DNA of 61,460 bases, filler included, from 10 parts of 10 records of this genome joined end to end with filler, not necessarily neighbours in it; one strand, 5' to 3'. Positions 1 to 58,233 are shown, counted from the first letter of the whole stretch. Program-made: numbers and translations. Notes: a model not told the origin generated them from the letters alone.

Positions 1-2040
1 AATGCTGCTGAACCCTGCCAGTGCACCGCAGGGCTTAGCACCCACATCGAGCAGGGAAGGTCGTGAATAGAAATTTTGAAATATGAAAAGTGACACAGTA
101 TGTCACAATTGGCCACCTCAGTGGCCTCGACGTTCAGTCGCGTCTCGTCGCCAATTGGAACTACGACAGTTCTGTCCTTGACATACACCTGGCCATACAA
201 TTCAGTCACAGCACAGTCAGATTCCGTCAGTTGCCTTGGTCTGGCGCGAGGGCTTATCTGCATAAAGGCCCGCCCAGTCGGCCAAGCTCCAGCCGCGAAG
301 CAACAGCACAGCCTCGACACATAAGAAGTCTGCAATTGAGTCTCCAACCGCCTGCAAGCTGAGCTGGCCACTGCCACTGGCTTGTTGCACTGACCTGGTT
401 GAGCAGTTTGGCGCAGCCCAAGATCCGGTGCAGTGCGGTCTCTCGTTTGCTCAACCTTGTGCTGCATTCAGGATGTGGCCGGGGATCAGGGGGCACCGGA
501 GTCCCGCCTCTTGCAGTTGCCCCAGGTTGGCCACTACCAGCTCTACCACCTGCGACCGCTGGTCCACAGCGCGACTGGTGGGGCACCCAGTCCTTGATGA
601 TGGCCGTGCCATGCCCATTGGCTTCAAAGTACACCCCTGCACAGTAGTTGTAAGTCTAGTGCGCTAGGCCTCAAGGTACAAGCCACATGCTACTACCCAA
701 CCCCTCGCCCGAAACCTAATCCTACTGACCGATGTCGAACTCCTCGGCAGCATGGTGGCAATACTTGACCCCTGTTTTGGCATACACGCACCTGGTCAAA
801 ACACGATATGAGCCCCCCTCTCCGGCGGCACATACGCAATGCCCTTGCTTGTTACGTAGTCGTATGCAGCTCCATTTGCGTACGCTGTCTGGACAATTCC
901 TAGCTGGACCTTGTCCGCCAGCCCAGCAAGCTGCACTTGCTCGCTCAAGAAATCCGCGATCAGCACTGCAATCTTGTCGCCGTCGAACAGAACGAAATCC
1001 GGCTCGTTTGAGAAATAGACAATCCGATCAGCGTCCCCGTCAAAGCTGGCTGCCCGTGCCACGCACGGCGCATTGGCTGGAGCCAGCCGCTTCTTCTGTG
1101 CAAACTCGGCCCCACAGCCCACATTCAGCGCTGCAGGGTCTTCGAGGGGGCTGGCATTGAACGGTAGCAGATCGAGCCCTGTGAGCTCAGCAATCTGCCC
1201 TACGTGCAGCGCGCCGACTCCGTTGGCGCAGTCGATATGCAGCGGGCCAGCCTTGTGAGTTGGAGTGTCTCCGAGCACTTGGAAGAAGCCTTCGGCCAGT
1301 TTGTGGTAGTAGCCATCAACGGAGGCCCAGGCTGCCTCACCCCTCCCATGCGAGTAGACCACATGGTGCAGCTGAGGGGTAGTCACCACGCCGATTTCGC
1401 AGACCTTGCCCCCGACTGCCTCTATCCCGGCCACGCACAGCTGCTTGAGGCGGTCAGACGACTCTCGGGTGTCCCATCCGAGGACAACAAGCCCGCCGCA
1501 AGGGGTGAGTCCACGGAGGGCGGTGATGATGCCCTCTGCCTGGGCTATCCTCAGAAGAGTCTCCACTGGATGGGGCGAGTTGGCCAGCTCAGTGCAGTAC
1601 GGCTCCCAGGCCCCGTCGAGCATCCCGCCGGACGGGTCGGCCAACTTCATCCCGTTGTCTTCCGGCGGGTTGTGGCTGGCGGTCACCATGATTCCCACCG
1701 CCCCGGCGCTGCGGGCCGCCCTGAGGACCGCCAGCATGCCCATGCGCAGGCAGGTACTCTCCAGCCGGTCTGCCCTGTCGCGGAACCCCGCGGTGCCGTA
1801 CGCCAAGGCGCGGCCCTCGGGCAGGGGCACTGAGTCAGCCAGTTCGAACACTCGGGCCAGGTCCACAGCGCCCGAATGGGCTGGCTGCGCGGGACGCGCG
1901 GTTTTCGCAGTCGGCCTGGTGCTGGGCGCCGGGCGGGTTTGCTCGAGTCGATCGATCGCGGACATGATGCGGTCAATCTCATCCATTTGCACGGCCATAC
2001 CGAGGAATCCTGCGGCGGACCGGCTTTGTCCGTTGGACAT
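1..2040 (-). CDS. PGM3: Phosphoacetylglucosamine mutase (PGM3/AGM1), intron-containing, 3' end runs off the window; start at 2040 or 1998
   Basis: Motifs YGTAGFR, TASHNP, DCANGVG, SFDGDADR, QTAYANG, YFEANGHGT and spliced NQ|AVGDSIAD...RQTK|VYVKDR. Confidence 0.95.
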
Positions 2041-2104
2041 TCACTGATCAGGCGGGGTGCTTACAGCACAGCACTGGGCGGGCCCGGTGGTGCTCACGAG
2101 CGGC

Positions 2105-3226
2105 ATGCTGAACAAGGTGCGCCCGGCCCGCGGCCAGCCCAATCACCTGCCGCGGACAGTGCTGCCCCTGGCTCTTCCCCCCAGCCAAGAGCGCCGCTGA
2201 GGCCGAGCAGTCCGAGGGCCTGATCTCCGCAGACCCGCAGGCCAGCCCCTGCCAGTCGCCAGCCTGACCCGGCGGGCGCAGGCGGGCTCAGGATCGCCAG
2301 GCCAGGCACACAGCCAGGCCCGGGTGATCCGAGTTTACCGTTGGACAGGACGATCAGGCCGCGCATGAGGAGTCAGGCGCGCCTGTCTCTGAATTCAAGT
2401 GCCCGGGCACTGGTGCTAGGGCGGGACGGAGGGCAGGGAGGAGATGGAGCAGCTGAGCAACATCGTGGCGCTCATGCTCGCCGAGGCCGTGTTCGCTTAC
2501 GAAAACTCGTTCGAGATCAAGGTAAGCTGCTTATTGTTAGGGCGCGGCTAACGGACACTGCAGCTGAGCGACCAGTTTGCGATGATGTTCGACATGCAGG
2601 CAAGCCGCTGGGATTCCAGCACTGACGGCTGGGCAGCTCTCCTTCTCGTTCGACTCTCTAAAGGCTAATTGATAATACGGCGCCTGTCGAACTGTTGGCA
2701 GGAGGCTGAGAAGCAGCTGATGAACGCGCTCTCCGAGATTTTCGACAATGAGGTGGGCACCGGACAGTATGCGCTGACAGGGGCGCAGGCGGCCAGCAAG
2801 TGGTTCTTCGAGCAGCTGGACCACCACATGCTCGACTATGTCAACTCGCTCACGCCGCCCCAAAAGTACCCGTGCCTGCTTGACGGCAGCTCACTCTCGG
2901 AATAGATGGGAGTACAAGGCCCGGTCCGGGCTGGGCCGGCCCGAGAAGATTGGCGTGGTGACGTCTGGCGGTGCGTCGAAGCACCGGCAGCTGGGCTGAG
3001 CTTGTGGGCAGTGGGCGCGCCTGCTAGGACCAGCGAAGACTCGGTTCAAATTACTGTCCAATACTGGGATCACACGTGCGGGCGAGGCGGGCCGTTCAAG
3101 TGCCGCGATGCCCGGCGGCGGAGTGAGGAGTTGGGCAGGTATGAAGTTCAGCTAATGCGGTTTGGGGTAGTGTCGGGCCGGTCCGACGACGTGGCTCTCA
3201 TGAAAAAGAAGAAGGATATCCAGTAA
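2105..3226 (+). CDS. Small multi-exon hypothetical protein; C-terminus weakly resembles a dynein-light-chain-like fold
   Basis: Hand-spliced exons from ~2444 give MEQLSNIVALMLAEAVFAYENSFEIK|LSDQFAMMFDMQ|LSFSFDSLK|EAEKQL...KKKKDIQ*; 5' exons uncertain. Confidence 0.55.
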
Positions 3227-3465
3227 CCAGCCGACCGGATGATGTGTGCATACAATGCGAACATACTAATCGATCGTATGCATGCATGAATGCCGGCATT
3301 TGTACATATTTAAAATGTTAGCTGGGAGGTTATAATCTCAAACCGGCCGAATATTATTTATACGGTTATGCTGACAATCATTGCCTCAGGCATTCAGTTG
3401 GCATCGCAGTGTTCATCAGCCTCAAGCAGTCACAGTTCGCCAGCGTTAATCGATCCCGCTGCACA

Positions 3466-4961
3466 ATGCCGGCAAGCCCTCGCCTGCCCCCCAAGGTCTG
3501 AGTGTGTTGCAGATCCAGCACCCGACGGACGATGACCACATCTTCACCGAGTACACGATCGGACCGTACACCATCGAGACCTACGGCGACGTGGACTCGG
3601 TCTGGGAGAACCTGTGCGAGAAGCACGGCTACGCCGAGGTGGTCGACCAGAACGAGCTCATGATGGAGCTGCCCTGGTGCAAGGGGGTGATGAAGCCCGA
3701 CGAGCGCCACCCCCGCCCGCCGTTTGACCCGCACCCGCAAGAGCTCGACTTCTCGGCCCCGCACGGGCTGGTCTCGCCCGAGCAGGACACGATCGAGTGG
3801 GTGGAGAACTACCAATCCAAGGCCGAGTACCCGAGCATGCTGTTCGCCGGGATGACCTACTACGGGTTCGGGGCGCGCAGCTGCAAGTCCGACGGGTCGT
3901 GGACGGTGGGCCAGATTAAGGTGATGCTCTCGGAGATCTTCAAGGGCCTGGAGAACCCGGGCGATGACGATCCTGAACAGTTTGATATCATTGTGGGCAA
4001 CCGGTGCAGAGCCAACCACGAGCGCATTCGCGACATCTTCCCGAAGATCCACGACGAGGGCCTGCACTGCCAGATGTCGATTTTCCCGCGGTTCAAGACC
4101 AAGCGCGGGTACTGGATGACAACGCTGCACAACGCGCACCGGTTTGATCCCGAAGACATCATGGTGCGGGCTTTCTGCGAGGGGGGGGGGGGGTGATCCA
4201 GGTCATAGGTGGAGTTAGAGAAAATCAAGGCCAAGGAGCGCGAGATTGAGGAGCGTGAGAAGCCGCAGACCAAGACTGGAGTGAGCGCTCCTAACAGCAA
4301 ATGATGATGGGGCAATGTGTGCAGGTGCTGTTCCCAGGCCAGGGTACTCAGACAGTCGGGATGGGCAAGCTGTTGGTGGACGGCCCGCATGGCGACGCCG
4401 CCAAGGAGGTCTATGAGAAGGCTTCGGCTGTGCTTGGGTATGACCTGCTCGACATTTGCCTGAATGGCCCCAAGGAGAAGCTGGACGAGACACAGTATTC
4501 ACAGCCAGCGGTGGTGGTGACCTCGCTTGCAGCGATGGCGGTGCACGAGAAGGACAATGAATTCCATGCGGCCATGATTGCCGGGTTCTCTCTGGGCGAG
4601 TATGCTGCACTCATCTATGCCGGTGCGATCGATTTTGAGGATGGCATGAAGCTGATCAAAATCCGGGGTGATGCGATGGACGAGGCCGCTAAGGCAACTA
4701 ACGGCGGGATGGTGAGCGTGATTGGACTTGCTGACGAGAAGATTGAGGAGCTGATCGCTGAAGCCAAGAAATCTACTGCGGGCTGTGCTGACGAGCCGAT
4801 CCAAATTGCCAACCACCTGTTCCCTGAGGGCCGCACGTTGAGTGGCAACAAGGATCTGTGCCAGTGGTTCGTAGACAATGCCAAGGGGCACGGAGCCAAA
4901 AATGCAAAAATGCTTCCAGTGGCGGGGGCCTTCCATTCTGGGTACATGTTGCCAGCCCAGG
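3466..4961 (+). CDS. Unknown N-terminal domain (partly ubiquitin-like) fused to malonyl-CoA:ACP transacylase (FabD/MCAT); 3' truncated by spacer
   Basis: Introns 3472-3512, 4164-4208 and 4281-4324 join the frames; MCAT motifs LFPGQG, TQYSQPA, GFSLGEY, RGDAM, GAFHS. Confidence 0.85.
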
Positions 4962-5061
4962 NNNNNNNNNNNNNNNNNNNNNNNNNNNNNNNNNNNNNNN
5001 NNNNNTTAATTAATTAANNNNNNNNNNNNNNNNNNNNNNNNNNNNNNNNNNNNNNNNNNNN
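4962..5061. other. Artificial contig spacer
   Basis: N-run / TTAATTAATTAA (stops in all six frames) / N-run. Confidence 0.98.
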
Positions 5062-6179: not shown

Positions 6180-6205
6180 TGCCAGGCGCTAGGTGAGACG
6201 GTAGC

Positions 6206-9954: not shown

Positions 9955-10054
9955 NNNNNNNNNNNNNNNNNNNNNNNNNNNNNNNNNNNNNNNNNNNNTT
10001 AATTAATTAANNNNNNNNNNNNNNNNNNNNNNNNNNNNNNNNNNNNNNNNNNNN
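9955..10054. other. Artificial contig spacer
   Basis: N-run / TTAATTAATTAA / N-run. Confidence 0.98.
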
Positions 10055-17148: not shown

Positions 17149-17248
17149 NNNNNNNNNNNNNNNNNNNNNNNNNNNNNNNNNNNNNNNNNNNNTTAATTAA
17201 TTAANNNNNNNNNNNNNNNNNNNNNNNNNNNNNNNNNNNNNNNNNNNN
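17149..17248. other. Artificial contig spacer
   Basis: N-run / TTAATTAATTAA / N-run. Confidence 0.98.
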
Positions 17249-19167: not shown

Positions 19168-20372
19168 ATGGCCGGGGAGGTGGAGCGGCGGTCGGCGGCC
19201 GGGCTGTCGCCGGAGCAGATCCGGGTGGTGCTCGACGGGGCGCAGCAGCCGCTGGTGCTCGAGTCGGCCATCGAGCGCTGGCCGGCCCGGGGCTGGAGCC
19301 CTGGACGGCTGGCCGAACACTTCGGGAGCGCACCGGCCCAGCTGCGCTTCCACCGACGGGATCCGGGCCGGACCCCGTGGGAGGGCGAGGGGGAGCATCG
19401 GGTGGGCTGCCGGCGGGCAGGGCGGGAGCGGCCGGGGCAGGAGTCCTCGCTGGGCGAGTTCTGCGCCTGGCTGGAGGACGAGCCCGTCTCGAAGCGGCCC
19501 AAGGGCCAAGGGCTGCCGCACCGGGCCGGCTGGTCAGGCTACTGCGCGTACAAGTACTTCCATCAGGCGGCCAGAGTCGCACGGCCCCGCTGAGCCCGGC
19601 GGCAGCTGTTCGCAGAGCACCCGGCGGCACTCGAGGCTGTGTGCTGGGACCAGCTCGGTGCGCGGCGGCCGGATGGGTCGGAGCCAGGGGCAGGGCTGGG
19701 GAACGGGGGGGGCGAGTCGGTGCTGTGGCTGGGGAGCGAAGGGGCGTGCACCCCTTGCCACTACGATACATATGGGACCAACGTGGTCGCTCAGCTTCAT
19801 GGGACCAAACAGTGGTCGCTCTGGCCGCCTGGTGCGGTCATGCTCTCAGCCGGGCCGAGTCGGCGGGCCAGAGTGCCGGCTGCGGGCCACACGCACTCCG
19901 TACGAGGAGTCCTCTGTCTTCTGCGCCCAGCCTGAGCTGCCAGCCGCGCTGACGGTGCAACTCAGCCCAGGCGAGGTGCCGCCGCCCGGGGTGCAGGCTG
20001 CAGCCAGGGCAGGTGCTGGCTGTCCCGCGCCATTGGTGGCACCTGGTCCGGTCCGAGTCTGTCAGCCTGAGCGTTAACCTGTGGCGGACGCACCCGCGGG
20101 ACCGGGAGGAGGCGGCCAACGAGGCCGTGGTCCGGCTAGTCAGTCGGGCGGTGTACGATAGCTGTGGGGCGCCCGAGAGCCAATGGCTCAACCCAGGCGA
20201 GCAGCTGTGCCCGGGTCGGTCCTGCCTGCAGGCGCTGTCCGAGCTGCTCGGACAAGAGGCGGGCCCGGCCGAGCTGGTGGACGCGCTGGCCGATCGTGAG
20301 GTGGTCGAGCTTGTGGTGGCCAAACTCAAGGCGGCAGCTACTTCTAGTGCTCTAACAGACCATCCGGGCTAA
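19168..20372 (+). CDS. HSPBAP1: JmjC-domain hydroxylase, HSPBAP1-like
   Basis: LWLGSEGACTPCHYDTYGTNVVAQLHGTKQWSLWPP and VPRHWWHLV (HxD...H); several short introns. Confidence 0.8.
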
Positions 20373-20710: not shown

Positions 20711-23700
20711 ATGAACTCGGAGCCGTCGATCTCGAGCTGGATCGACCCGCCCAACCCTTGCCACCGATGGAACCCGGCCACCTCGGTCAGCTTCCCGTTC
20801 CCCGAGGGGACCGGCCGGGGGTACAGACTCTTCCGCTGGGTCTTCCGCCGGTACCACAACCTGCTGGCCCCGGAGCTCAACAAGCTGCTCGCACATGAGG
20901 GCCCGCCCCCCTCGTTCGACCACCTGCTCGGCTGCCTCGAAGTGCCGGTGGCTAGCTCCGGTGAGGCCGTGATGCTGCTCTGCGCGCAAAGCTGCGGGGA
21001 CACCTTCGCGTTCGAGGAAGTCGACGGCGGCCGGATCCGGGTGATGCTGCGCGAGTGGTCCCCCGCCGACGCCCAGGAGGCGCTCGAGGCCGACGAGGCC
21101 ATGCGCGACAAGACACGCCGGGAGCGGGCGCTGTGGGCCTTCTTGTGCTCCGGCGGGGCGCTGCCGGTGCGGGCCTGGGTTGTCTCGGGGCTGATGCTCA
21201 CCCGGGCGGCGATGGACCTGTTCCCTGTGGTGATGTCGGAGGTCCGCCGCTTCCACGCCGAGTGCGCCCAAGAGGCCGGTCAGCTCAGGCACCACGCGTG
21301 GACCAGAAAGGCCGGCCGCCGGCCAAACTTTCGCTGGATAAACAGTAACCCGGCCATGTCCTGGGCGCTCGAGCCCAGCGATCGGCCGGAGGTTCTCCGG
21401 CTGCCGCTAGAGCTGGTGGACCGGCCGGCCGCTGAGGCAGTCCAGGGAGTGCTGGTCGGCGGGTGTGCGCAGGACCCTGGGATGATAGAGCTAGGGTTTG
21501 CACCGCCGATAGGGTCAATCGGGGAGCTGCGGCGGACCGTGCTGGAGGAGCTGCTGTACGAGGGGGTCCCGGCCACCGAGAACGACACGTTTGGGCTGTT
21601 TGTGGATTGGACTTCTACGTACGAGGGCGACCCATCCCAGTATGAGTCGGATTGTCAAGTGCTATGTACGGTGCTCCAGGCGGTCGGCTCGACCCAACAG
21701 CTGCGCGAGCGGGCGGCCGAGGTGCGGGCCGGCCTGTCGGCTGGTGAGTCGAGGCAGGTGCGCGGGCTTTGTGAGTCGTGGGCGCTTAAGCAGCACCTCG
21801 ACATAGCAGCGAGCTGCCAGCTGATCCAACAGCTGCTTGCGTGCGCTAACCGGCTCGACCCGGCAACCGCCGAAGCGTACGATAAGCTGAGCGGGGGGGC
21901 GCTCGAGTCCGTGCTCGCGCTCGAGCGCTCACATTTGATATACAACTGCCTGGCTGTGCTTTCTGGCCCGAGAGACCCCCGGCAGCCACAGGCACCGGGC
22001 AGGCGGGCGGGGCTGAGCGGGGGGCAGGCCAAGCGGGCCTTCTTCGAGCAGCTGAGCAAGCTCCGGATGAGTGGGACCGCCCCTGGCTCTGACGATCAGA
22101 TGCTCCAGCAGCTGAGGCTCAGACTGCAGGTGCGGTGTGCGGTGCTCCAACTGACTGGGGGCAGGCAACTGACACGGACTGGATCAGAGCAGCCCACACC
22201 GGCTGGGCCAACAGCTCTGTCCAGCTCCAGTCGACCATCAGCACCTGGCTGCACGAGCAATCAGCAGTCCAGCGCACGCTTTGGTTATACGGAGAGACCG
22301 GCGCGGGCAAGTCTGGGCTGCTCGCACAAATCGTGGACCAGTACCAGGGTCCGGAGCTGCTCGCCGCCCACTGGAGCATGCAGGGCGCCACCAGCGCCTC
22401 GCTCCACTCGGCCCTCTGCTCGCTGGTGCCTCGCGGGATGTTCTGAGTTGAGCCGGCGGGCCAGGCGCATCAGCTGGCGGCCCAGTCGCCGCGGCTGCTC
22501 CGGGCGATGCTGCAGCAGCTGGCGAGCGAGGGGACCGCACCACTCAACCAACGGACAGTGGCTGAGCTGTGCTCTCTGCTGTTTGTGGAGCCGTTTCTTG
22601 CACTCGAACCGACTCCTCAGCCGGTGCCAGACAATGATTGATCGATCGATTGACCCGGCGCAGGTGCTGCTGGTGCTGGATGGCGTGGACAACTGGCGGA
22701 CGCACGAGCTCGAGCAGCTCTGGCAGATCCTGCCCAGCCTGCAGGGCCGGGCCCGGGCGCTCCCAGGAGTTGTGCGTGTGGTGCTCTCATGTGAGTCCGA
22801 CCCGTCGATGCTCGGACTGCAAGAGAGCCCCGCGGTGCTCCCAGTGCAGGTCGAGCCCTCGGCCGGCTCGATGGAGGCGGTGCTCCACGCAGCGCTGGTC
22901 GAGAGGGCGGCCACCGAGGAGCAAGCCGAGTCGGCGCAGATGCTCGTGGTGCAGGCTCAGGCTCTGAGGGCGGCGATGAGCCCGGGCGGCTGGCAGCAAG
23001 TGCACTGGGTCAGCGCGATGCTCCAGTACGATGCGATGGTTGCCCGGGTGTACGGGAGCAAGCCCCTCCCAATCAGCCAGTGCAGCTGGGCACAGGGCGC
23101 CCAGCTTCAGGCGCTCCACCGGACACACTTTGAGCAGATGGCGCGCACCATGCTCGCGCACCAGCCCGAGACGGGGCTCACGCTGGTCCACTTGCTCTTC
23201 TCGCTGCTCCAGCTGGTCTGCGCGCTGGGGGGCGAGCCAATCAGCTTTGACATGCTGGCTCGGGTGCTCAATCCGGCTGACTCGCCGCACGTTGTCTCAC
23301 TGCTCCAGACGCTCGCCCAGCACCTGGCGCCACTCATGCACGGCCGGTATCTGGTGCTCGGCCGGTCGGTCCGCTGGTGGCTTACCCGCACAAACACAAA
23401 CGAGATGGCGCAAGCGCTCGGGGTGCCGCCCCTGAGCGTTGAGCCTCACCAGCTGATCATTACGGCGCTCCGGCAACGACCGGACAGCTGTGCGCTGGCC
23501 AAGGAGCTGGCGGAGCTGTTCGTGGCCTCAGGCCAGACTGAGAAGGCGCGCGAGCTGCTGAGCGTGGTGTCCAAGCCGTCAGTGGAGCTGGTGACATACT
23601 TGCTTGCGCTTCACCAGTGGGCAGCTGACAGCAACGGGGCACGCGAGGTGAGCTCGCCTGCTGGCCACAGGGCTCACTGGCAGGCAGGTGCTGCAACACG

Positions 23701-26700
23701 TGCTGGCGCACACGGAGATCGAAGTCACTGCCGCCATGTGGGCGGCTGGGTTGGCGTCGTGCGCAATGGAAGGCTGTCCACAAGCGGCCGAGCGCTGCTT
23801 TGGCGAGATGCGTGAGGCAGGCGCTCTGGCAGAGATCACCACGTACAATCTCATGATCGTGGCCTACTGCCGGGCCCAGCAGCCGGATGCAGCCACTGTC
23901 TGGATATCCCACATGAACGACGCTGGAGTGGCTGCCGACTTGGTCAGCCTGCGGACTCTCGTGTGTGCCTATGCCGAACTGCACAGGTCAGACCAGCCAG
24001 CGCTAGGCCTGAATCTAACTCCTGCGAGGGCAGGCCGGAGCAGGCACTCCGATGGCTGGGCCAGATGGAGTGCGCTGGGTTTCTGCCCGATTCAGCCCTG
24101 TGCACACAGGCATGCCTGCACGGTGGGCTCTGTGAGCCAGATGACAGGTGATCGATTCATGCACTGAGGCTGGAGCCGGGTTCCGGTCAGCGGCCGAGCG
24201 GATTCTGCAGCTTATGTGTGACCTTTCGCGGAGTCTGCACGCCGACACGATCAATGGGTGGCCCGGTCGGCTGGTCAAGTGCTGACTGGCGGGCAGGATA
24301 CTTGATTTTGACCTGGAGCACGCCGAGCCGAGCATGGAGGCGATCAGCAGGGTGGCGGAGGGCTGGCTGGACTGGATGAGGGCGCACCGTGTGGCGGCCA
24401 CAGTGGAGACGTACAACTTGATCATTGCTGCCATGTCGGAGACAGCAGACGAGCCCGAGCAGGTTTCGCGCTGGCTGGACGCCATGGGCCAGCAGGGGCT
24501 CTCACCAGACGTGAACTCGATCATCCACGTGGCAGAGTCATACGCACAGGCCAAGCAGCCGCACGAGGCCGCCTGGTGGCTGCAGCAGCTGCCTAGCTTA
24601 GGACTCCAGCCGTCTGCTCAGAGCTTTGAGTGTGGGGTGCGGGCCTATATTGAAGCCGGGATGCCGCAGGAAGCCTTGACCTGGCTGCACAAGCTCTGGG
24701 CTTCTGGGCTCTCGATGAGTGACACCACGCTGCTCGCACTTGTGTGTGAGGCGTTTGTGCAAGCCGGCGAGCTTGACATCCTCACAGTCGAGTGGCTTGA
24801 GTCGGTGCTCCGCCAGTCACGACTCCAGCCAGACACTATGCTATGCGACCGGCTGGTGAGCTCACTACTGCACGCCAAGCACGTGAACAAGGCTGTGCAG
24901 TGGATGGAGTGGTTTGTGCAGATCCGGGTGCTTCCAGAGATCCGGACACTCACGATGCTCATCACTGCTCTCGCCGCTGCACGAATGCCGGTGGAGTGTG
25001 CGATGTGGATCAACCACATGGAGAACTTGGCCGGTGTCAAACCGTGCACTGTGCACTACAATGCAGTGATCGCGGCCTTTTCTCGCTCGGGACAGGCAGA
25101 GATGGCCGCGTGGTGGCTCAACCACATGCAGGCGAAAGGAGCCCAGCGGGATGTGGTCAGCTTCTCCACTGTAATATCAGCATACGCTGCCGCCAAGAAG
25201 TGCGAGGAGGCAGCTGAGTGGCTCGAAGCGATGAAGGTGGCTGGGGTCCAGCCCGACATCATCTCTTACAACACTGTGATCTCGGCGTACGCTGCCTCCA
25301 AGCGCCCGGAGGAGGCTGCTCACTGGCTCACCTGCATGCGCCAGGCGAGAATCGAGCCCGACGTCTTCAGCTACAACACGGTGGTATCAGCGTATGCTGG
25401 CGCCCGCCGGGCCTCGGAAGCGGCCGAGTGGTTGAACAGGATGCGCGTTGCTGGAGTCCAGCCGGACGTGGTCAGCTTCAACACTGTCATCTCAGCCTAC
25501 GCTGGAACCAACGAGCCGCACCAGGCGGTGCTCTGGCTGGAGTCGATGAAGGAAGCGCAGATCGAGCCGGACGTAGTCAGCTATAACACTGTGATCTCTG
25601 CGTTTGCCACTGCCGGCGAGCCGCTGGAGGCAGCAGCCTGGCTGGAGAAGATGTCGCGTGAGGCCTCGCTCAACCCGGATGTGGTGAGCTACTCCACCGT
25701 GATCTCGGCGTATGCGAATGTGGCAATGGCAGCCGAGGCCGCCGAGTGGCTCAAGCGGATGCAGCACGCAGGAGTAGAGCCCAACGTGGTCAGCTTCTCC
25801 AGCGTGATCTCTGCATATGCGGCAGCCAAGCAGCCGAACGAGGCTGGGTGGTGGCTGGAGGCCATGAAGCAGTCCGGGATAGAGCCCAACGTAGTAAGCT
25901 TTTCCGCCGTGATCTCTGCATATGCGAGCGCTCGCCAGCCTGATAAGGCAGCCGAGTGGCTCAACAAGATGCGCGCCTCCGGGATCGAGCCAAACGTGGT
26001 GAGCTTCTCCACTGTCATGGATGCCTATGCGCGTGTGGGCGCGCTCGGGCCGTGCCAGTGGTATCTGGACGAGATGATCGGGCTCGGGCTGAGGCCGAAC
26101 AGGTACACGTACGGCGCTCTGCTGCAGGCGTGCGGCCGGTGCAACGAACCGCAGCTGGCTTGGATGTATTTCGAGCGGCTGCTCTCGGAAGGAGTCGAGC
26201 TGCACAAGTTTCTGTTCGACTGGCTCGAGCGGGTGCCATGCTTGATTGAGCGAGTGCTGACAGTCGGGCAGGTGCTGGGCGAGCAGTCGTTTGAATACTT
26301 TTGCCACACACACGGGCTGTCACTGGACGCGATCCGAGCTGGCAACTACAGGCACGCGCTCAACCAGGGCTCGGCGGCCCAGAACCCACTGCACGACGAT
26401 AAGCAGCCACCTCCGCCCAAGGGCGGGGCCAACCGGAAAGCCAAGGCGCGCGGGCAGGTCGCCCGGTCCAAGCAGAGCAATGGAAAGCACTCGAGGACGC
26501 GGCAGCACCAGCACCATAACAGCAAGGGCGGCGGCGGCAGGGGGCAACGCAATCGGGGCAAGGGTGGAGGTGGCCGGGGGCAGCACGGATCACAGGGCCA
26601 GAATGGATCAGCTGGCAACAGTGGCAGCAGTCGGCAGCCCCAATCTGGCATGGCGGTGGCACCTCCGCCCCCGCCCATCGAAGCTGTGTGGGACTACCAG

Positions 26701-27240: not shown

Positions 27241-28297
27241 TGAACAAATAGCTGCCCGCTCGGCTGGCCGGGGGCCGCGGGCCGGAGGGACCAGTTTTGC
27301 TCGGACGGGTTTCCGTTGAGCTCAAAGATGTTCAGCAGGTCGTAAAACTGCCCGTGCGTGTCGCCGCACACTGTCATCCGTTTGTCCTCGTCGAAGTTAA
27401 CCCGCGTGAGCGACGGCGCCGCCACCTGCCCGCGCCGCTCGCCGCCGCCCGGCCGTAGCAGCGCACATGCTTGCGCCGCATTGCTATCAGGATCTGGAAT
27501 ACGTATCTGCCACCGCCAGTCAGCCAGTCCAGCGGCAGCCATTAGGTACTTGCGGTGGATAGACTTCTCCTCCTTGAACCACTGCATCATCTCGAGCACT
27601 GCCCCGCAGCTCAGCCGCTCGGCTGTGCCAGCTCGCACCAGACTCGATAGTCGGCGGCGAAGGTATGTGTGGGCCTTTATACGAGTCGTCCACCACTGCC
27701 CCGGGTGAGAGCGAACCCCGCCGGGCGCACCGATCTCCTCGGGGTCGAGAGTATCGCTCAGCAACTGCACGTCGTGGTCCCCGCTGATTGCATCTGCGAA
27801 CGCCTGCTTCTTGAGCTCCTTGCGGCACTCCTTGAGCTTATCCCGCGCCACCTTATCCTTGGGCTCCAGTTCCACCGCCTGCCCCCTGCTCGGCTGTCCC
27901 GCCCGGAATGGCCACCAATTTGAACGCCGCGGCCGCCTCCTTGAGCTTCCCCAGCCCGATGAACGCGCAGCCCTTGCGGTACGACGCCTGCGCCGCCGCT
28001 CGCAGCGTCAGAGCGGCCGCCAGGAGCCTTGGCGTTGGTCGGCTCGAGCCCGAGCGCGCTGGAGGCGTCCTCGATCACCGAACCCCAGTTCTCCATCCTG
28101 AGGTGGGCCATGGCCCGGTTGTTGAACAGCACGGCCAGCGGGAGCACGGCGATCCCCTGCGAGTACAGGTCCACCGCATCCTGGTACTGGCCAGCTGGCC
28201 CACTGATCAGCCCCGGCCGGCCGCAGCGCTCACCTTTGAACACCTCGTTGCCCTGCGCTTTGAACGCAAGCGCAGCTTCCTCTGTCTCTGTCGACAT
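27241..28297 (-). CDS. PPP5C: Serine/threonine protein phosphatase 5 (TPR + PPP domain), 3' truncated
   Basis: KAQGNEVFK, NRAMAHLRMENW (TPR); TVCGDTHGQFYDLLNIFELNG; eight short introns traced. Confidence 0.93.
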
Positions 28298-31286: not shown

Positions 31287-31386
31287 NNNNNNNNNNNNNN
31301 NNNNNNNNNNNNNNNNNNNNNNNNNNNNNNTTAATTAATTAANNNNNNNNNNNNNNNNNNNNNNNNNNNNNNNNNNNNNNNNNNNN
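31287..31386. other. Artificial contig spacer
   Basis: N-run / TTAATTAATTAA / N-run. Confidence 0.98.
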
Positions 31387-34300
31387 CACAGCCTTCTTCT
31401 TCGTCACCCGGGGCGCTGGCTTCTTCTTGGCAGGCGCTGGCTTAGCAGGAGCATCATCAAAGTCCTCATCATCATCCATCATGCTCCAAGACGGGGCAGG
31501 CTCGGTCTGCTTTCGCTGCGCCAGTCGCTCCATCAGTGACAAGGGCTCGTTGCTCGCTTGCTCTGCCTCCTTGGGCAAAGCTGCAGCCTTCTTTGCTGCA
31601 GGCCGCGCTGCTGGCTTGGCACGAGGTGCCTTGGCAGCAGGCTTCTTCTTAGCCGCCTGCGAGCACGGCATCAAAACATCTAGTTGATCACGGGAGCGTT
31701 CACCTTGCCCTCGAAGTCCGAATCCTCGTCCGAGCCGTCGTCAAAGTCGAAGTCATCGAGCTCATCAGAGTCGTCCATCACCTTCATCAGCTTCTTCTTG
31801 GCAGCAGCCTTGGCTTTGCCTTTGCCTTTCTTGGCGTTCGCCTGCCAGCAAATCATCAGACCATTTTTATTCAGCCTGAAGCGTTGCCTTGAGCTTGATC
31901 TTCTGCTGCTTGTTCTTCTGCGCCTCGATGGCCGCCTCAAACTCGGAGAGTGCCTGGTCTAGTTCGTCTAGATCCTCCTCAAACAGATCTGTCAATGTCT
32001 TGCCTTCGAGTGTATTAAGCTCCTCGAGCTTTCCACTGGCCTCTTCTTGGAGCTTCATAATCTTTTCTAGGGTGAGGCTCCACATAGGCATGCCAAGCAG
32101 GTAGTCGTACCCTCCCGGGAGAATCTCAGCTGGGGCATCCTCGTCGTCTTCGCCTTGCTCCTCGTCCACAACCTCAGCCTTCTCCTTGGAGAATTGCTCG
32201 AACCCGAGGTTGGCGAGTTCGACCAGCAAATCAGCCTTCTTCTTCTTGGCCACCACGAGCTCTTCGTCTACCACCATCTGAATGAACCGCTGCCTGTTGT
32301 CCAGCTTGGACCACTCCTTCCGGAGCTTCTTGAGCATGAAGTCCTTCCGATCTCCGAATACCTTCAGTCGAAGCTGGTAGAAGTCACTCAGCACTTCCAG
32401 ACAAGATGAATACTTCTTGATCCGACCCTCAAAATCGAACAAGTGCATGTTGGAGCTGGCAACCGAAGAGGTGAGTTTAAACTTCTTGTGCAGGCCTTCG
32501 GCTTGAGCGGCAGCCATATTCTCTGGACTGAGGGTTACCACGAAGTGAGCCTTGGTGTCGGTGTGGTGTTCTTCGAAGCCCTGGATGAAAGCGTCCTTCT
32601 TTTTGCCTTCACCTTCAATCCGCTCCTCGAGCCATTCCTTATAGTCCTGCCAGCTCAAGCTCACTGACTCTGTTTAGCATGCAAACAGACCTGCGTCCAT
32701 TTTTTCAGAGGCAACTCAGTGATTTCGACAGTGGTGTCGTCTAATGCTTGGATCACTCCGTATGTAGTGAAGCTGGAGGGGTCTTTCTCCTTAGGCTCGA
32801 CCAGGCCAGTGAACCCACGATACCATGGCACCATTGGCTCCATCTCTTCATTGCCGATCAACCGCTTGAGATTGGCAACGATGTCGTGCGGGTTGAAGCA
32901 CGGCACATCCGAAGACCAGCCAGTTCCAATCCCCGAAGCACCTGCAGCAATGTCAATCGCCAGAAGATTCAGGTGGGCAATTACCGTTGACCAGCGACAT
33001 TGGGATCAGCGGGACGTAGTACTCCGGCTCCACACTCATCCCGTCGTCGGTCAGATGCCGGAGTACTTGGTCATCCAACTCGTTGAAGATCACACGAGTG
33101 ATTGGCGACAGCTGAGTGAACACGTACCTCGGGCTGGCTGCGTCCTTGCCACCCTGAAGCCGGGTGCCGAACTGGCCATTGGGCATCAGCAGATTGATGT
33201 TGTTGGAGCCAAGGAAGTCTTGTGCCATGTTGATGATCTGCCAAACCGCGAATAAGTACCCGATTGCAATAATTCCACTCACAGTGCCGCACAGTGAAGC
33301 CTCACCGTGGTGGTAGGCTGCGTGCTCCGATACATACCTGGCCAGCAATCAGAATCCAGCCAGACTTAATCAATCACCCGGCCAGCTGCGCAACCTTGAT
33401 CTCGTTCTTGAGCTTGCGCTTGAAGCATGCGAACAGCACCTTCCGCTGGCCTGGCTTGAGCCCGTCAACCTGCAGCGGTGTGAGCCCAGCCAGAGTATGC
33501 CCAGTTACCATCGACGGGATTGAGCGCAGGTTGTCAGCCATGGAGAAGTGGATGAGCTCGTTGTGCACAAAGTCAGAAAAGTCGATTGCTTCTTGCGTGT
33601 GGTCCACAAACGATTCCGGGTCGAAACCATTCAGCCACTCTTTGCGCGCGTCGGCCTTCTTCTTGTTGAACGCCATGTCCAGATCTTGCTCGTTGTGGTC
33701 GCCGGTGTAGGAGAAGTCGAGCTGGTGCAGCTCCAGGTTTGAGAAGTACTCCTTGGCCTCGGCCGATGTGCTGGTACCCAGACCTTTGTAATACTTGATC
33801 TTCCAGCCCTTGCCGTCGTCGTGCTGCTCCTTCCACTGCGCGTACTCGGTCTGGGTGAAGAACGAGTGCGAGCTGCTGCCCTTGGTCACCTTGACAATCG
33901 GGGTGACAAACTCCTGCAGGAAGCCAGGGATCTGGAGCAGCGACGGCCAGAACGTGGCTATCATGTTGATCACCAGCCCCTTGATGTGCGAGCCGTCGTG
34001 GTCCTGGTCGGCCATGATCAGGATGTGCCCGTACCTGAGCGACTTAGTGTCGGTGTACTTCTTGCCGTGCTGCAGGCCCATGATCTGCTTGATGTTGTTG
34101 ATCTCCGCGTTCTCCATGATCTGCTTGTGCACCGCGTCCCGCACGTTGAGTAGCTTACCCTTGAGTGGGAACACCCCGTAGTGGTCCCGGCCGACCACCC
34201 CGAGCCCACTGCCGCACCCTCAGCCACTCGTTCGGGTCGGCTGCTACCTCACTGCGAGCGCCTTGGCTGAGTCCCCCTCAGTCAGGATCAGCGAGCACTG

Positions 34301-35730
34301 GCTCGCATTCTTGCCGCCGGCCTGCCGCCGGTTGAGCTGATTGGGGCAGGTGGGCACCTGGTTGGCGTCGTCCAGCTTTGCGATCCCCGAGACCCGGCCC
34401 TTCTTCTTGCCATCTGTTCGCTTGAGCTCGTTCCCGGCCTTCATTTTGGCCCAGTTCAAGATGTTGTCCACCACCCCGCACCCGAGAACCTGCTTGATCA
34501 GCTTGTCGCTCAGCGCGCAGCTCGACCCGAACGCCGACGCTTTGGTTGTCATGTACTCCTGAGATCGGAGTGAGTGCGCCAGCAATTAATCAATCAACTG
34601 ACCTTGGTCTGCGAGTTGAACGCTGGGTTCTCGACCAGGCAGTTCATGTAGATGGCCAGCTGGTTCTTGATGTGGGTCGGCTTGATCGGGACGTTCTTGT
34701 GCTTCTTCTTGAACATGTCGAGGAACTTGGTGACCAGCTGGTCTGCCACGTAGTCCAGGTGCTTTCCACCCTTGGAGGTGCAGATCGAGTTGACGAACGA
34801 CACCTGCTGGAACGTGCCGTCGCTCACCGAGATTGCGACCTCCCAACGGTCATTCACACGCTCGTACATCAGCGGGCTTTCGCTGTCGGCCGAGATGTAA
34901 AGGTTGATGTAATCCTTGAACGTCTTGATCGGGAGGTTCTTGCCGTTGAGCGACACTTTGACCGACCTGCCGGTGCAGCCCGCCATGTCGTACACCCGCT
35001 TGGTCATCAGGGCCACCATCTGGCCGTCGAGGTAGCTCATCCCGAACCGGGCCAGGTCGGGCTTGAAGCTTATCTTGGTCCAGTCGGCCTTGCCCACCCC
35101 GCTAGTCTTGATCTCCGGGCTGCTCCGCTCAGACATGTTGTTCCGGTACACCTGCCGGAACTTGCGCCCGCGCACGCTGTCGTTGCACTCGACCACGAAC
35201 TCGGTCGAGTAGATGTTTGTGAGCTTGGCCCCAAACCCGTTCCGGCCGCCGGTCACCTTCTTCTTGCCGTCGTCGAAGTTGCTTGAGGTGAGCAGCTCGC
35301 CGAACACCAGCTCGGGCACGTACACCTGGTGCTTGGTGTGCTTCTCCACCGGGACGGTCTTGCCGTTGTTGAGCACCGAGATCATCCCGTTCTCCTGGTC
35401 GATCTCCACCGCCAGCAAGTTCATCGAGTCGTCCCGCTGCTTGTTGTCGGCCGCGTTGACCAGGATCTCGTCGAAGATCTTGTACAGCCCGGGGGCGAAC
35501 GTGATGTCCTTGCGGGCCATCTTGCCGGCGGCCTCGTCCCAGACCCACATGTTCTCGCTCTGGTGCTCCACCGCCCCGATGTACGCGTCGGGCCTGAGCA
35601 GGATGTGCTCGACCTGGGTCTTCTTGTCGTAGTCCAGCGTGTCATCCTTGACGCACGGGCTCTTCGGGGTGAACTCCGCGCTCGAGTTGGCCCCGGCCGA
35701 CTGCTTCAGTGGCCGCTTCACAGCTGCCAT
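31387..35730 (-). CDS. TOP2: DNA topoisomerase II, 3' truncated
   Basis: EHILLRPDAYIG, EILVNAADN, GGRNGFGAK, TEGDSA, PLKGKLLN, DQDHDGSH, DGLKPGQRK, AASPRY; ten short introns. Confidence 0.99.
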
Positions 35731-37743: not shown

Positions 37744-37842
37744 NNNNNNNNNNNNNNNNNNNNNNNNNNNNNNNNNNNNNNNNNNNNTTAATTAATTAAN
37801 NNNNNNNNNNNNNNNNNNNNNNNNNNNNNNNNNNNNNNNNNN
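37744..37842. other. Artificial contig spacer
   Basis: N-run / TTAATTAATTAA / N-run. Confidence 0.98.
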
Positions 37843-38790
37843 NGCAGCCGGGCTGGCTCTGCGGGCGGCGGCCGGGTGCGGGCTGCTCCGGCCGGCCTGA
37901 CCGGCGGGCAGCGAGGGTCGTCTGGGCGAGGCCCGCTGGAGCGCAGATCGCTGGCCGGAGCCATTGGCGCTGGCACGCTGCGAGGGTGTGCGGCCGGAGG
38001 GGCTTAGAGGCTCAGGGCGGGGCCAGGCGATAGGTACTGGTGCGTGTGGGGCGCAGACAAAAGAGCTGTCAGAGAGCTCTGCGCCGGGCTGACGCTGCCG
38101 GCGGACGGGCGGGTGGGGCGTGGGAGGTCGGATGCGGGTGATCGGCCGGTCAGGTCACGTTCGCCGGCTTGTCGGAGCACTTGCTGCAGCCGGTGCGGGC
38201 CAGTTTCAAAGTGCTGGCCAAGATTAAGTTCACTGTAGCCCCCGGCTCGCCCGGGCAGTCAGGCCGGGCCAGATGCTAGTCTACCGCGCCGGCGGGTTGG
38301 ACGGGGGCGGGACTGAGCTGCTCGAGCCGGGCGATGCCGAGCGCGTGACTGAGCACTGGGAGCACTCTGACGAGCTCAGCTATGTGCAGGCCAGGATCCG
38401 GTGAACCCTTGCCCAGCACAGAGCGGACGGCCGGCAGGGACGGCCCGACCGCCTGTGTGCGCGGCCCGGAAGGGGAAGCGGTGGCCTGGGGGCTCACGCA
38501 CAGCGAGGGCGCGGTGAGGCTGCTGAATGGATCGTGTCGTTACTGGCCGGGTGCAGATCGGTGCGGTGTTTACTATGCCCGAGCACAGGAGGCAAGGGCA
38601 CGCACTTGCAGTGGTCAGGGCGCTGGTGGGCCGGACTCAAGCGCTGGGCCGGACGGCTTATTGCTTTGTGCGGACCGACAATCAAAGCTCGTTGCAGTTG
38701 TTCGCTAGATGCGGATTCGAGCCAGTCGAGCCTGCCGTGTTCTGGCTCATGGGACAAGCGCTGACAGACGATAGCGACTCGGAAGATTGA
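37843..38790 (+). CDS. GNAT (FR47/glycine N-acyltransferase-like) acetyltransferase, 5' truncated
   Basis: IGAVFTMPEHRRQGHA...NQSSLQLFARCGF (GNAT motifs A and B). Confidence 0.8.
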
Positions 38791-50093: not shown

Positions 50094-50193
50094 NNNNNNN
50101 NNNNNNNNNNNNNNNNNNNNNNNNNNNNNNNNNNNNNTTAATTAATTAANNNNNNNNNNNNNNNNNNNNNNNNNNNNNNNNNNNNNNNNNNNN
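50094..50193. other. Artificial contig spacer
   Basis: N-run / TTAATTAATTAA / N-run. Confidence 0.98.
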
Positions 50194-52296: not shown

Positions 52297-54010
52297 TCAC
52301 TTGTAAAAATCAGAAGTGGTGTACTCTTTCCACGGAGTATCAGCAAACATGATGTTTCGCAGAAAGTCTGGACCGGTAAATTTACCTTTTACGCATCGTC
52401 GCCAATACACCCATCGTGGAAAGACTTTCTCGTGAATTGTCCACAGCAGCCTTGAATCCTTACGCTGATCGAAGAAAAAGCTTTCGAGAGATTCGTCTTC
52501 GAATGCACTCTCTGCAAATCAGCATCATGTGTCATGGGTCATGGGGCATGGGATTCTACTGTGAGAGAGCTTACCTGCTAGCAGTAGGCGGTTGGGAGCG
52601 GTCATAGTGGCATTTGCTGTGTAGCCCCAGTACCTGTAAGCTCATGAGGGTAAATCTCTACTCGAACGCCTCAAGCGACCTTGTGCCCCACTCTAGGTCG
52701 AGCTCCCTTCCTTTCTTCAAAGAGAGAAGGTTGTGCATCACTGTCTTCACCTGGTCGTTTGCTGCCTGTCACCCGCCAGTTTCAACCGGCGGATTCCATC
52801 GAGCATGAGCACCGCAGACGTCTTCATTGTTTCTGTGGTTGCGCAATCACCCAGCCCAAATACATTATCAAAGCGCACTGACTGCAATGTGTGCTTGTCC
52901 ACTTCAACAAATCCCTGTAGGTCCGAAAGGGCCGAATATCTAAGAGCCTCGATTGGTACTGGTGCACACTGTTGTCAGTCTAGAATGCTGCGGACCGACC
53001 TTGCTGCGGCGTCACGTGGATCAAATCAAACTCTTCAGTGCTAAACCTGAGCCGTCCGTCGCCGTCTGCCGCTGCAAATACGGCCTGGTTTTGGTCCGGC
53101 CTGGCGTGCTCTCAGCACATGCCGCGGGGGCAGCTCTGCCTGATTTCAACCAGCTGCTTGCTGTGGCAGACTTGGATTGCACTCTTGGCAGAACAGGCCT
53201 CGAGTGTCTCTCTGTACTTCTTGACTGGGTAAAGCTCGTCAAGACCATTCATCAGCACCACTGGGCTGCTGCCCCGAATTCCCTGTTCTCTTAAACGGTG
53301 CTCGACTAGAAACATTGCCGAGTGTGTGGCCGCAGTGCACGCCGACCGGTCTCGTGGGTGTGTGAACAGCACTCGCCCCCCGCCAAACTCGTCCAGCGCT
53401 CGGCGCATATGTTCCACCCCGCCTTCCAGGTGGGTGGTGTGCACCCGTGAGCGCATCTCGAGCGCCTCGGACAGCCCGGGGACCGCCTGGATCTCCGGTC
53501 GGGTTCCGGCGGCCACCACCAGCATATCGTACCCGACCTGCCCGCGGCTCAGCCGGACCGGCCAGGGGGCACCTTGCTCCCATCGGCCGTATACACAGCG
53601 TTCTCGCTGGGCTCGAACTGTACCACGGCGTCTTGGATCCACTCGGCCTTTTTATGAATCAGTTTGGCCAGCGGTCGGCTGTCCATCGGGCTCCCGGTGC
53701 ACCCCGCGGCGGTCCAGGAGCGCTGGCCAGCAGTGATCGGCCAGCCGGCCGGCGGGTGCCTTGTAGTGATGGGTCTCCGACGGGTCGATCACGGCCACCC
53801 GCTTGGTCTTGCTCCCGGGGAATCGCCACAGCTTGCGGGCGAGCGCATTGCACAAGCCCAATCCGCCGGCCCCGGCCCCGACCACGAGCACCTGATTGGC
53901 CCAGCGGCTCAGCCCGAGCTGCAGCCCCGGGCCTGCCCCACCTCGAAGTGCTTCCGCTCCGCCGCAGCCGAGCACAGCCCCCTCCTCCCTGCCGGCAGAG
54001 CCCGCAGCAT
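52297..54010 (-). CDS. SQOR: Sulfide:quinone oxidoreductase-like flavoprotein with mitochondrial-type presequence
   Basis: VLVVGAGAGG, IDPSETHHY, YDMLVVAAG, FVEVDKHTLQ, VFGLGDC, ESFFFDQRK, YW..CVKGKFTGP. Confidence 0.85.
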
Positions 54011-54073
54011 CGTCTCGGGCGTGCGGCTGCAGTTAAACGGATTTTATCATCACGCTGGCACACCGTGGGCGCG

Positions 54074-54685: not shown

Positions 54686-54785
54686 NNNNNNNNNNNNNNN
54701 NNNNNNNNNNNNNNNNNNNNNNNNNNNNNTTAATTAATTAANNNNNNNNNNNNNNNNNNNNNNNNNNNNNNNNNNNNNNNNNNNN
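54686..54785. other. Artificial contig spacer
   Basis: N-run / TTAATTAATTAA / N-run. Confidence 0.98.
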
Positions 54786-57124: not shown

Positions 57125-57348
57125 CTATAGTAAGTTATTTTGAGTGTCGACTACAGGATTTTAGAGGCTCGTAAAATCGATAGGGGCAAAGTGCTCGATT
57201 TGTGCCTGGAGTGCACCCAAATCTCGCAAGAGATGTTCCCTCAATTCCCACCTGCAAGCGGTCCTCATTTTCACCCTTTTGCAATCATTTCAGACCCATG
57301 CATTGCATAAAAGTTAGGAGCATTTCAAGAGGTTCTGAAGCTCACCTG

Positions 57349-57684
57349 CTAAAAGTCCTTCGGAAAGTTTGCAAGAATTTGGTGCCGAAACACATTCGCC
57401 GCCGCCCCGAACAGTTTGATCACTGCCTGAATCGCAACCGTCCCGAGCCGCATCAGCTCCAGTTGCGAGATGACCAGGATCAGCTGGAGCATCGCGTCCA
57501 GGTCCAGCTGGTCGCCCCCCGCCGGCTCGTCCCGAGGCACGTACAGGTACCCCTGGACGAACCCAGCCAGCCGATTGAAAGGCCCCGCCAGGTGCCTCGC
57601 ATCTGGCTTCTTGGCCGCCTGCGCCACCGCGCTGCGAGCCGTGGCCAGTAACGCCATCCCCGAGGCCGCCTCCTGGTCTGTCAT
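57349..57684 (-). CDS. Small hypothetical protein
   Basis: Coding-like ORF divergent from MED31; ends uncertain. Confidence 0.5.
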   Translation of the reverse strand: MTDQEAASGMALLATARSAVAQAAKKPDARHLAGPFNRLAGFVQGYLYVPRDEPAGGDQLDLDAMLQLILVISQLELMRLGTVAIQAVIKLFGAAANVFRHQILANFPKDF

Positions 57685-57784
57685 CCGCTCACTCACGCTG
57701 GTTGGGCTCGCGGCATCCCCCTGCTCACGCCTCAGAGGCGCTTCTTTGCTCCACACGGCAACAACGGACATTCGAGACATCAGC

Positions 57785-58233
57785 ATGTCCACCGAGGAGC
57801 AAGATCGGTTCGAGACCGAGCTCGAGTTTGTGCAGTGCCTGTGCAACGTGCGCTACCTGCATCGTGCGCCAACGATCGGCCCCGGGCTGACCGGCCGGCA
57901 GACCTGGCCCAGCACCGGTTCCTGGACGAGCCGGACTTCGTCAACTATCTGGACTACCTCCAGTACTGGGCCCGCCCCGAGTACGCCCGGTGCCCGAGCC
58001 GCCCGACGTGGGCTGATCCCGGGCCAGGTTTATCGTGTACCCGCAGTGCCTCCAATTCCTCCGGCTGCTTCAGAACTCCGCCTTTCGGAAGGAGCTGAGC
58101 AAGCCTGAGGCGCCCGGCTGGCCCGCGCCCGGGAGAGCGAGGGCAGGTGGTCGAAATGATCGCCGGCCAGCAGCACTTTTACTGGCGGAGGAATCTAGTG
58201 ACGCGGCCGCCGGAGCCCCCTGCCGCCTCGTGA
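57785..58233 (+). CDS. MED31: Mediator subunit 31 (SOH1)
   Basis: RFETELEFVQCLCN, FVNYLDYLQYWARPEYA, YPQCLQFLRLLQ; three introns. Confidence 0.95.

Follow-up and report, generated by a model that had tools for sequence, protein, structure and literature searches.

Gene content and source of the window

We have examined the introns of a stretch of DNA of 61,460 nucleotides (nt), filler included, which as a whole is referred to as the window, with the focus on GC-AG introns, i.e. introns that begin with GC instead of GT and end with AG; such introns had been predicted to be unusually frequent here. In five genes of the window, PGM3, PPP5, the SQOR homologue, MED31 and TOP2, at least one GC donor each is needed in order to obtain the conserved protein; the original prediction had held this of several of its introns.

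The Pfam scans of stop-to-stop open reading frames (ORFs; 120, 117 and 105 proteins) have revealed an ordinary eukaryotic gene array that occupies both strands: PGM3/AGM1 (1-2040, minus strand), an acyltransferase, CCDC93, a Calx-beta/ricin-lectin protein, a JmjC/Cupin_8 gene, NPHP3_N, a PPR protein, PPP5, a lysine methyltransferase, TOP2, NUBPL, GH116, myosin, the SQOR homologue, Rit1 and MED31. The G+C content varies between 0.52 and 0.65 along the window (about 60% overall), and the G+C content at third codon positions (GC3) is 0.81 in 5,849 training codons. An Rfam search of the window has returned 0 matches, and no small nuclear RNA (snRNA) or splicing-factor gene is found within it.

The DNA is nuclear and belongs to a GC-rich marine eukaryote, a protist of unplaced lineage. 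The closest relatives of PGM3 and TOP2 are 58% and 61% identical, respectively, among the 120 listed matches of each protein, and stem from environmental sources; the named relatives among the matches listed are scattered over oomycetes, red algae and chytrids; the public run that carries part of the DNA of the window is one marine metatranscriptome (share 0.06). The sole fairly close relative that was seen for any gene of the window is P0241, a 219-residue SQOR fragment, 67% identical over its best stretch (53115-54032, minus strand), which suggests that related organisms are present in environmental data.

Introns anchored by conserved proteins

Our search for intron boundaries is based on a junction scorer: between two in-frame anchors, all intron placements are considered, with any end dinucleotides, and the spliced peptides are scored against homologues; the donor is then fixed by the best removal length that leaves no gap, together with a 3' AG. 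The homologues used were 8 of 120 for PGM3 and 8 of 120 for TOP2. The SQOR junctions have been scored against P0241, the one useful match among 5, and against ORFs from three (L001, L003 and L005) of the five loci with bacterial-type SQR genes that a metagenome scan has provided; L002 and L004 were left out because they are near-copies. A search for homologues among longer proteins with the SQOR exon has given 0 matches. In the lists that follow, the slash marks the exon-intron boundary.

The introns of PGM3/AGM1 are:
189..234 (minus strand), GC-AG intron, 46 nt, AAG/GCAACT...CCAG, placed by exhaustive placement scoring and anchored on both sides
352..394 (minus strand), GT-AG intron, 43 nt, placed by homologue scoring
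637..729 (minus strand), GT-AG intron, 93 nt, placed by homologue scoring
792..835 (minus strand), GT-AG intron, 44 nt, placed by homologue scoring

At the GC-AG intron of PGM3, the best removal is 46 nt long; four offsets score equally and give the same peptide, and among them only the GC..CAG offset has both a G at position +1 and a 3' AG. An in-phase GT..AG alternative has been searched for at this junction, and none exists.

The introns of PPP5 are:
27988..28027 (minus strand), GC-AG intron, 40 nt, AAG/GCTCCT...GCAG, anchored on both sides
27879..27915 (minus strand), GT-AG intron, 37 nt, placed by PDB coordinates

In PPP5, the alignment of chain 1wao to the exon upstream of the GC-AG intron extends to residue 75-76, the middle exon of 72 nt corresponds to exactly the 24 missing residues, and the following exon begins at residue 100 of 1wao. 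The register of the TPR profile continues unbroken over the GC-AG intron, from position 2 to position 3, and there is no in-phase GT..AG alternative to this intron.

The introns of the SQOR homologue are:
53723..53759 (minus strand), intron 1, GC-AG, 37 nt, AAG/GCACCC...CCAG, anchored on both sides
53538..53572 (minus strand), intron 2, GT-AG, 35 nt, placed by scoring against P0241 and the SQR homologues
53101..53139 (minus strand), intron 3, GC-AG, 39 nt, CAG/GCAGAG...CCAG, absent from the earlier list
52959..52999 (minus strand), intron 4, GT-AG, 41 nt, placed by homologue scoring
52766..52812 (minus strand), intron 5, GT-AG, 47 nt, top score
52634..52691 (minus strand), intron 6, GT-AG, 58 nt; an alternative GT donor at 52679 gives 46 nt
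52512..52574 (minus strand), intron 7, GT-AG, 63 nt, CAG/GTAAGC, top score

The identity of the SQOR homologue has been established by PDB searches with exon 3 (residues 97-228), exon 5 and exon 8, while the other two read-through frames of its 3' half have no SQOR match in PDB. For intron 1, the removal of 37 nt is the best both against P0241 and against three independent SQR homologues; against P0241, the GC-AG placement is the sole G..AG placement at the best length, scoring 152 vs 156 for placements with non-splice termini, and the GT options remove conserved residues. For intron 3, the GC-AG placement has the top score of 118 against the L001, L003 and L005 ORFs, while the best GT option scores 96 and needs a GAG acceptor; the PDB alignment of SQOR extends up to the donor. 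Introns 4 and 6 have both been counted as GT.

The introns of MED31 are:
57864..57901 (+ strand), GT-AG intron, 38 nt, placed by Med31 profile coordinates
57990..58027 (+ strand), GT-AG intron, 38 nt, placed by Med31 profile coordinates
58110..58146 (+ strand), GC-AG intron, 37 nt, GAG/GCGCCC...GCAG, anchored on the upstream side only

Positions 50-78 of the Med31 profile and the alignments to MED31 structures from PDB stop at the GC donor of the third intron, for which no in-phase GT option is available.

The introns of TOP2 are:
34559..34602 (minus strand), GT-AG intron, 44 nt, placed by homologue scoring
34322..34357 (minus strand), GT-AG intron, 36 nt, in frame and stop-free, placed by homologue scoring
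34209..34247 (minus strand), GT-AG intron, 39 nt, placed by homologue scoring
33470..33508 (minus strand), GT-AG intron, 39 nt, in frame and stop-free, placed by homologue scoring
33338..33377 (minus strand), GT-AG intron, 40 nt, placed by homologue scoring
32942..32984 (minus strand), GT-AG intron, 43 nt, placed by homologue scoring
32647..32690 (minus strand), GT-AG intron, 44 nt, placed by homologue scoring
31842..31887 (minus strand), GC-AG intron of the C-terminal tail, 46 nt, AAG/GCAACG...GCAG, placed by coding potential on both sides

The seven homology-anchored introns of TOP2, of 36-44 nt, are all GT-AG. Two keep the reading frame and contain no stop codon, so that ORFs read through them as coding sequence, and therefore similar hidden introns may sit in long ORFs. 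The tail around the eighth intron is poorly conserved, lysine- and acid-rich; here, the sequence scores as coding on either side of the intron (+23.4 upstream, +22.0 downstream), a stop codon is met six codons beyond the donor, and all G[TC]..AG links that connect the two coding parts begin with GC (31887 or 31875), with no GT link. PPP5 and the tail region of TOP2 are cut by two of the masked blocks that are listed in the last section, which narrowed the stretch on which reads could be placed.

Frequency of GC donors

The anchored census contains 24 introns, 18 GT-AG and 6 GC-AG. Removal of the GC-AG intron restores a conserved protein on both sides in four cases (PGM3, SQOR twice, and PPP5) and on one side in MED31. 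When only the homology-anchored introns are considered, 5/23 are GC-AG, i.e. 22% (exact 95% confidence interval 7-44%; p=1e-5 vs 1.3%, p=0.005 vs 5%); with the intron of the TOP2 tail the count becomes 6/24 (p=5e-7 vs 1.3%). The reference value is the share of GC-AG introns of about 1.3% among 2.46 million introns overall that Iwata and Gotoh (2011; PMC3033335) give. The enrichment of GC-AG introns, by either count far above this value, is on the evidence of the genomic sequence real in this DNA, and GC would stand for GT in about one of 4-5 introns.

The original prediction had listed at least 11 GC-AG introns among about 50. The intervals themselves are correct, since 11/11 have GC as their first and CAG as their last bases on the given strands, and an exonic AG precedes 10/11 of the donors, as had been described. 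As GC-AG introns, 5/11 are supported by our analysis (PGM3, SQOR intron 1, PPP5, MED31 and the TOP2 tail), while six have GT alternatives or are not required; the list also misses at least one GC-AG intron, that of SQOR at 53101-53139. Neither the count of at least 11 GC-AG introns nor the total of about 50 introns is thus confirmed, the anchored census standing at 24. The premise that GC-AG introns make up about 1% is valid in model organisms; several GC-rich algae depart from it.

A scan for the combined signature of these introns, i.e. an AG/G-N donor, a branch motif and CAG within 35-46 nt, with the expectation taken from the antisense rate, has given 14 GC matches on the sense strand vs about 5.5 expected, 17 GT matches vs 6.4, and 12 GA matches vs 17.8. 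A codon-usage ab initio gene finder, which also yields no intron total, has been dropped as evidence for GC donors: when its donors are unconstrained, known donors are misplaced by one or two codons.

Anatomy of the introns

The introns of the census have a narrow size range, with 21/24 being 35-47 nt long and the remaining three 58, 63 and 93 nt. The acceptor is CAG in 24/24 introns, followed by G as the next exon base in 18/24. The branch-like motif takes the form CTSAY or GGCTGA; among the first 19 introns, five carry GGCTGA vs 0.36 expected (about 14x). TGCTGG and TTGCTG are common ahead of CAG, and 3' ends of the form TGCTGG(C)CAG recur. The 3' half of the introns is better conserved than the donor, with the strongest signals being located at the 3' end. 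The strict motif CT[GC]A[CTG] is present in the last 24 to 6 nt of 3/6 GC introns (PPP5, the TOP2 tail and SQOR intron 3); the other GC introns have looser or more distant matches to the branch motif, with none in MED31.

The donors of the six GC introns are GCAACT, GCAACG, GCACCC, GCAGAG, GCTCCT and GCGCCC. An exonic AG precedes 6/6 of them vs 8/18 GT donors (Fisher p=0.022), the background of AG before GC in coding sequence being 127/1900 = 6.7%. Their poor match to the U1 consensus, which had been noted from the start, is borne out by position +5, where G occurs in 0/6 GC donors vs 9/18 GT donors (p=0.037), and by position +4, where A occurs in 2/6. In model organisms, the remaining donor positions of GC-AG introns usually compensate and lie near consensus; none of the six GC introns has such an otherwise near-consensus donor. 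Poor donors are also found among the GT introns (GTGCCC three times, GTAGCA and GTGGCC), and since the GT donors are degenerate as well, the introns here have a weak 5' site irrespective of their class. The original prediction had proposed a relaxed recognition that would rely on the exonic AG and on intron length, a reasonable reading of which our analysis bears out the sequence features, i.e. the AG at 6/6 GC donors and the narrow lengths, while the weak donor is seen in GT introns too.

U12-type (minor) introns have donors of the [AG]TATCCTT type, which none of the six GC donors fits. Local GC content is not supported as a driver of GC donors (p=0.29 and 0.32).

Comparison with published cases

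Abundant GC-AG introns in GC-rich algae are already published, and a case with ultra-short introns is added here. Iwata and Gotoh (PMC3033335) report that the GC-AG share reaches 39.6% in Aureococcus and 22.2% in Micromonas pusilla, with 7.7% in a Chlorella, and link it to G+C content; U1 5' ends are described there as canonical, and the origin of the pattern is called an enigma. Van Baren et al. (2016; PMC4815162) give 25.6% for CCMP1545 and cite 50% for Emiliania huxleyi, while Verhelst et al. (2013; PMC3879977) tie the GC donors of Micromonas to introner elements with AG/GYGCGT donors, where GC occurs in about half of the copies. For strains of Aureococcus, a 2024 preprint gives 14-17%, and for Pelagomonas about 14% (10.1101/2024.10.30.620910). 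With a GC content of 0.52-0.65, a GC3 of 0.81 and 5/23 to 6/24 GC donors, the window fits in with such GC-rich genomes, where about 10% or more of the donors are GC.

Aureococcus anophagefferens and Pelagomonas calceolata are alike to the organism of the window in being GC-rich marine protists with 14-40% GC donors and AG acceptors, for which G+C content has been blamed, but their introns average 103-177 nt, whereas ours are mostly 35-47 nt long. Micromonas pusilla CCMP1545, which is also marine, has 22-26% GC donors, a GYGC-type donor after exonic AG and a CTGAC-type branch motif; in contrast to the window, where the introns are four times shorter and no intron family is seen among the 20 largest direct-repeat families, 79% of its GC donors are located in introners of about 180 nt. 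Emiliania huxleyi, compared by percentage alone, is another GC-rich alga from the sea in which the share of GC donors is very high. The GC-AG introns of animals, plants and fungi resemble ours in being U2-type, with C at +2, an AG acceptor and a favoured exonic AG; they are rarer by a factor of about 17 to 20, and unlike them, the GC-AG introns of the window are off consensus at +4 to +6. The differences from the published cases are intron size (35-47 vs 100-190 nt), the lack of an intron family among the largest repeats and, probably, lineage. In a limited literature search, no account has come up of a genome that combines abundant GC donors with introns of around 40 nt, which is no proof of absence.

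Origin of the GC donors

We consider it quite probable that the introns of the window are ordinary U2-type spliceosomal introns and that C has replaced T at +2 in about one in four or five of them as a result of relaxed selection under GC pressure. Introns as short as these may have their splice sites paired across the intron, and most of the information for their recognition would be supplied by length, branch site and 3' CAG; the T at +2 would then be under weak selection, biased mutation or gene conversion towards GC could turn GT donors into GC, and the GC donors would persist where the pairing of the exonic AG with U1 and U5 keeps the site usable. This explanation has been proposed for Aureococcus, Micromonas pusilla and Pelagomonas (PMC3033335; 10.1101/2024.10.30.620910).

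Several observations weigh against this explanation or against the counts on which it is built. The inner GC content of GC-donor introns is 0.68 vs 0.64 in GT-donor introns (p=0.29, first 19 introns), and therefore the absence of a difference between the donor classes gives no support to a simple drive by local composition. The 6 contigs of the marine metatranscriptome run that could be placed, all of them exon pieces, lie only on 20986-21280 and, in the PPR gene, on 25269-26236, with no joint and no covered junction among them, and are thus neutral with regard to splicing; because the RNA spans no junction, we infer the use of GC donors from protein conservation. Exon 4 of MED31 has no PDB match at E up to 10 and no Pfam match. 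In SQOR, a GC..GAG placement at 52948-52988 has the same score as intron 4, and for introns 4 and 6 the best canonical placement is GT-AG (189 and 115, respectively), with non-canonical placements scoring higher (208 and 128). When the gene finder was offered decoy second donors, it used GC 15 times, CC 14 times, and CT, GA and AG 10 times each; GC and decoy donors are not separated by it, and therefore ab initio counts cannot show GC usage. At least 4 of the 14 GC matches of the signature scan are false, being located inside Pfam- or homologue-aligned exons, so the scan is weakly specific. Lastly, the confidence interval is wide (7-44%) because five genes of one 61-kb window have been sampled.

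It might be argued that the GC-AG calls are tracing errors, with nearby GT donors, intron retention or broken genes behind them and a true share of 1-2%: 6/11 introns of the earlier list have GT alternatives or are not required, no RNA contig covers a junction, and ab initio models cannot tell GC from decoys. This we regard as hardly credible for the window, because no in-phase GT..AG option exists for PGM3, PPP5, MED31 or the TOP2 tail, and the GT options of the two GC introns of SQOR lose conserved residues and score lower (intron 3: 96 vs 118). Random misplacement would also not produce the AG that precedes all 6 GC donors against a background of 6.7%, and mis-tracing is largely excluded for the six GC-AG introns. 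A young, self-propagating family of introns, i.e. introner elements as in Micromonas pusilla CCMP1545, could also account for the shared features, since GTGCCC (three times), GTGCGC, GCGCCC and GCACCC are similar to the GYGCGT type of Verhelst et al. (PMC3879977), and the short motifs GGCTGA and CTGGC are common to many introns; this origin is very improbable, given that no intron family is found among the 20 largest of at least 60 direct-repeat families in the window, which consist of N masks, PPR repeats and short chance matches. Moreover, two MED31 introns are about 58% identical by hand count, the 35-47 nt of the introns here are far below the length of the CCMP1545 elements, and 2/6 GC introns are AT-rich, with an inner GC content of 0.41 and 0.49.

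The recognition of the 5' splice site may itself be altered, through a changed U1 or U6 snRNA, changes in U1C, Luc7 or Prp8, or a U1-independent definition, so that AG/GY alone would constitute the donor and the GC donors would be a distinct class with C at +5. The lack of G at +5 in the GC donors (0/6 vs 9/18, p=0.037) and their invariable exonic AG speak for such a change, as does their distance from the usual near-consensus GC-AG introns of model organisms. These are small numbers, and Aureococcus and Micromonas, with as many GC donors or more, have a canonical U1 5' end (PMC3033335); we judge altered recognition to be unlikely. A version of it, in which the 5' definition of this lineage is reduced to AG/GY and the GC donors form a class of their own (C at +5, never G), is hardly less improbable. 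The early spliceosome would then be modified or would lack stable U1 pairing, and specificity would be provided by the length of 35-47 nt, GGCTGA and CAG, which we put forward just as tentatively.

For annotation, the frequency of GC donors means that gene finders restricted to GT would disrupt or shorten about a third of the genes here, and that in-frame stop-free introns, e.g. 34322-34357 of TOP2, would be annotated as coding. Should the organism stand apart from pelagophytes, Mamiellales and haptophytes, this would argue that T at +2 has been relaxed under GC pressure repeatedly and convergently.

Further candidate introns and other features

The six introns of the earlier list that are not anchored are:
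2600..2636 (+ strand), candidate GC-AG intron, small gene; a GT-only parse is available
2664..2701 (+ strand), candidate GC-AG intron, small gene; the GT intron 2648-2701 makes it unnecessary
3472..3512 (+ strand), candidate GC-AG intron after a two-codon first exon; GT alternatives exist
19567..19605 (+ strand), candidate GC-AG intron, JmjC/Cupin_8 gene; donor GC 19567, GC 19570 or GT 19576
21992..22027 (+ strand), candidate GC-AG intron, 36 nt, in frame and stop-free; not required
24110..24147 (+ strand), candidate GC-AG intron, N-terminal region of the PPR gene; weak coding scores

The small gene at 2444-2905 (+ strand, about 114 codons), which has neither a Pfam family nor an Atlas look-alike, can be read either with one GT and two GC introns around a micro-exon of 27 nt or with two GT introns; the GT-only parse (2522-2563 and 2648-2701) has a codon score of 56.6 vs 64.4 for the parse with two GC introns. 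At 3472-3512, the acceptor is plausible, with coding sequence from 3513, and the donor is placed solely by an ATG-CCG start. In the JmjC/Cupin_8 gene, an intron is needed at 19567-19605 because of an in-frame stop, and a GC donor at 19570 or a 30-nt GT intron from 19576 fits almost equally well; the upstream exon has no PDB or Pfam match, and for the downstream exon the only matches are to FIH/JMJD5, in the region of the iron site. The candidate at 21992-22027 is located inside an ORF of 1051 codons with a neutral interior codon score of +1.6, and the nearby RNA contig does not reach it; in TOP2, introns of this in-frame, stop-free kind do occur. For 24110-24147, GT alternatives exist, with GAG acceptors.

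Additional GC-AG candidates from the gene finder and the signature scan, none of them homology-anchored, are:
19957-19996 (+ strand), GGT/GCAACT
43666-43706 (minus strand), CAG/GCAGCT
44027-44065 (minus strand), GAG/GCGGCC
23996-24033 (+ strand), CCA/GCCAGC

The window contains nine masked blocks, each consisting of 44 N, 12 bases and 44 N, at:
4962-5061, 9955-10054, 17149-17248, 27141-27240, 31287-31386
37744-37843, 50094-50193, 54686-54785, 58283-58382

A run of about 13 G at 4181-4195 (+ strand), where the ORF 3450-4193 ends, may be a homopolymer of the kind that is prone to assembly errors. In the PPR gene, eight tandem units of 105 nt at 25101-26048 (+ strand) correspond to PPR repeats of 35 residues.

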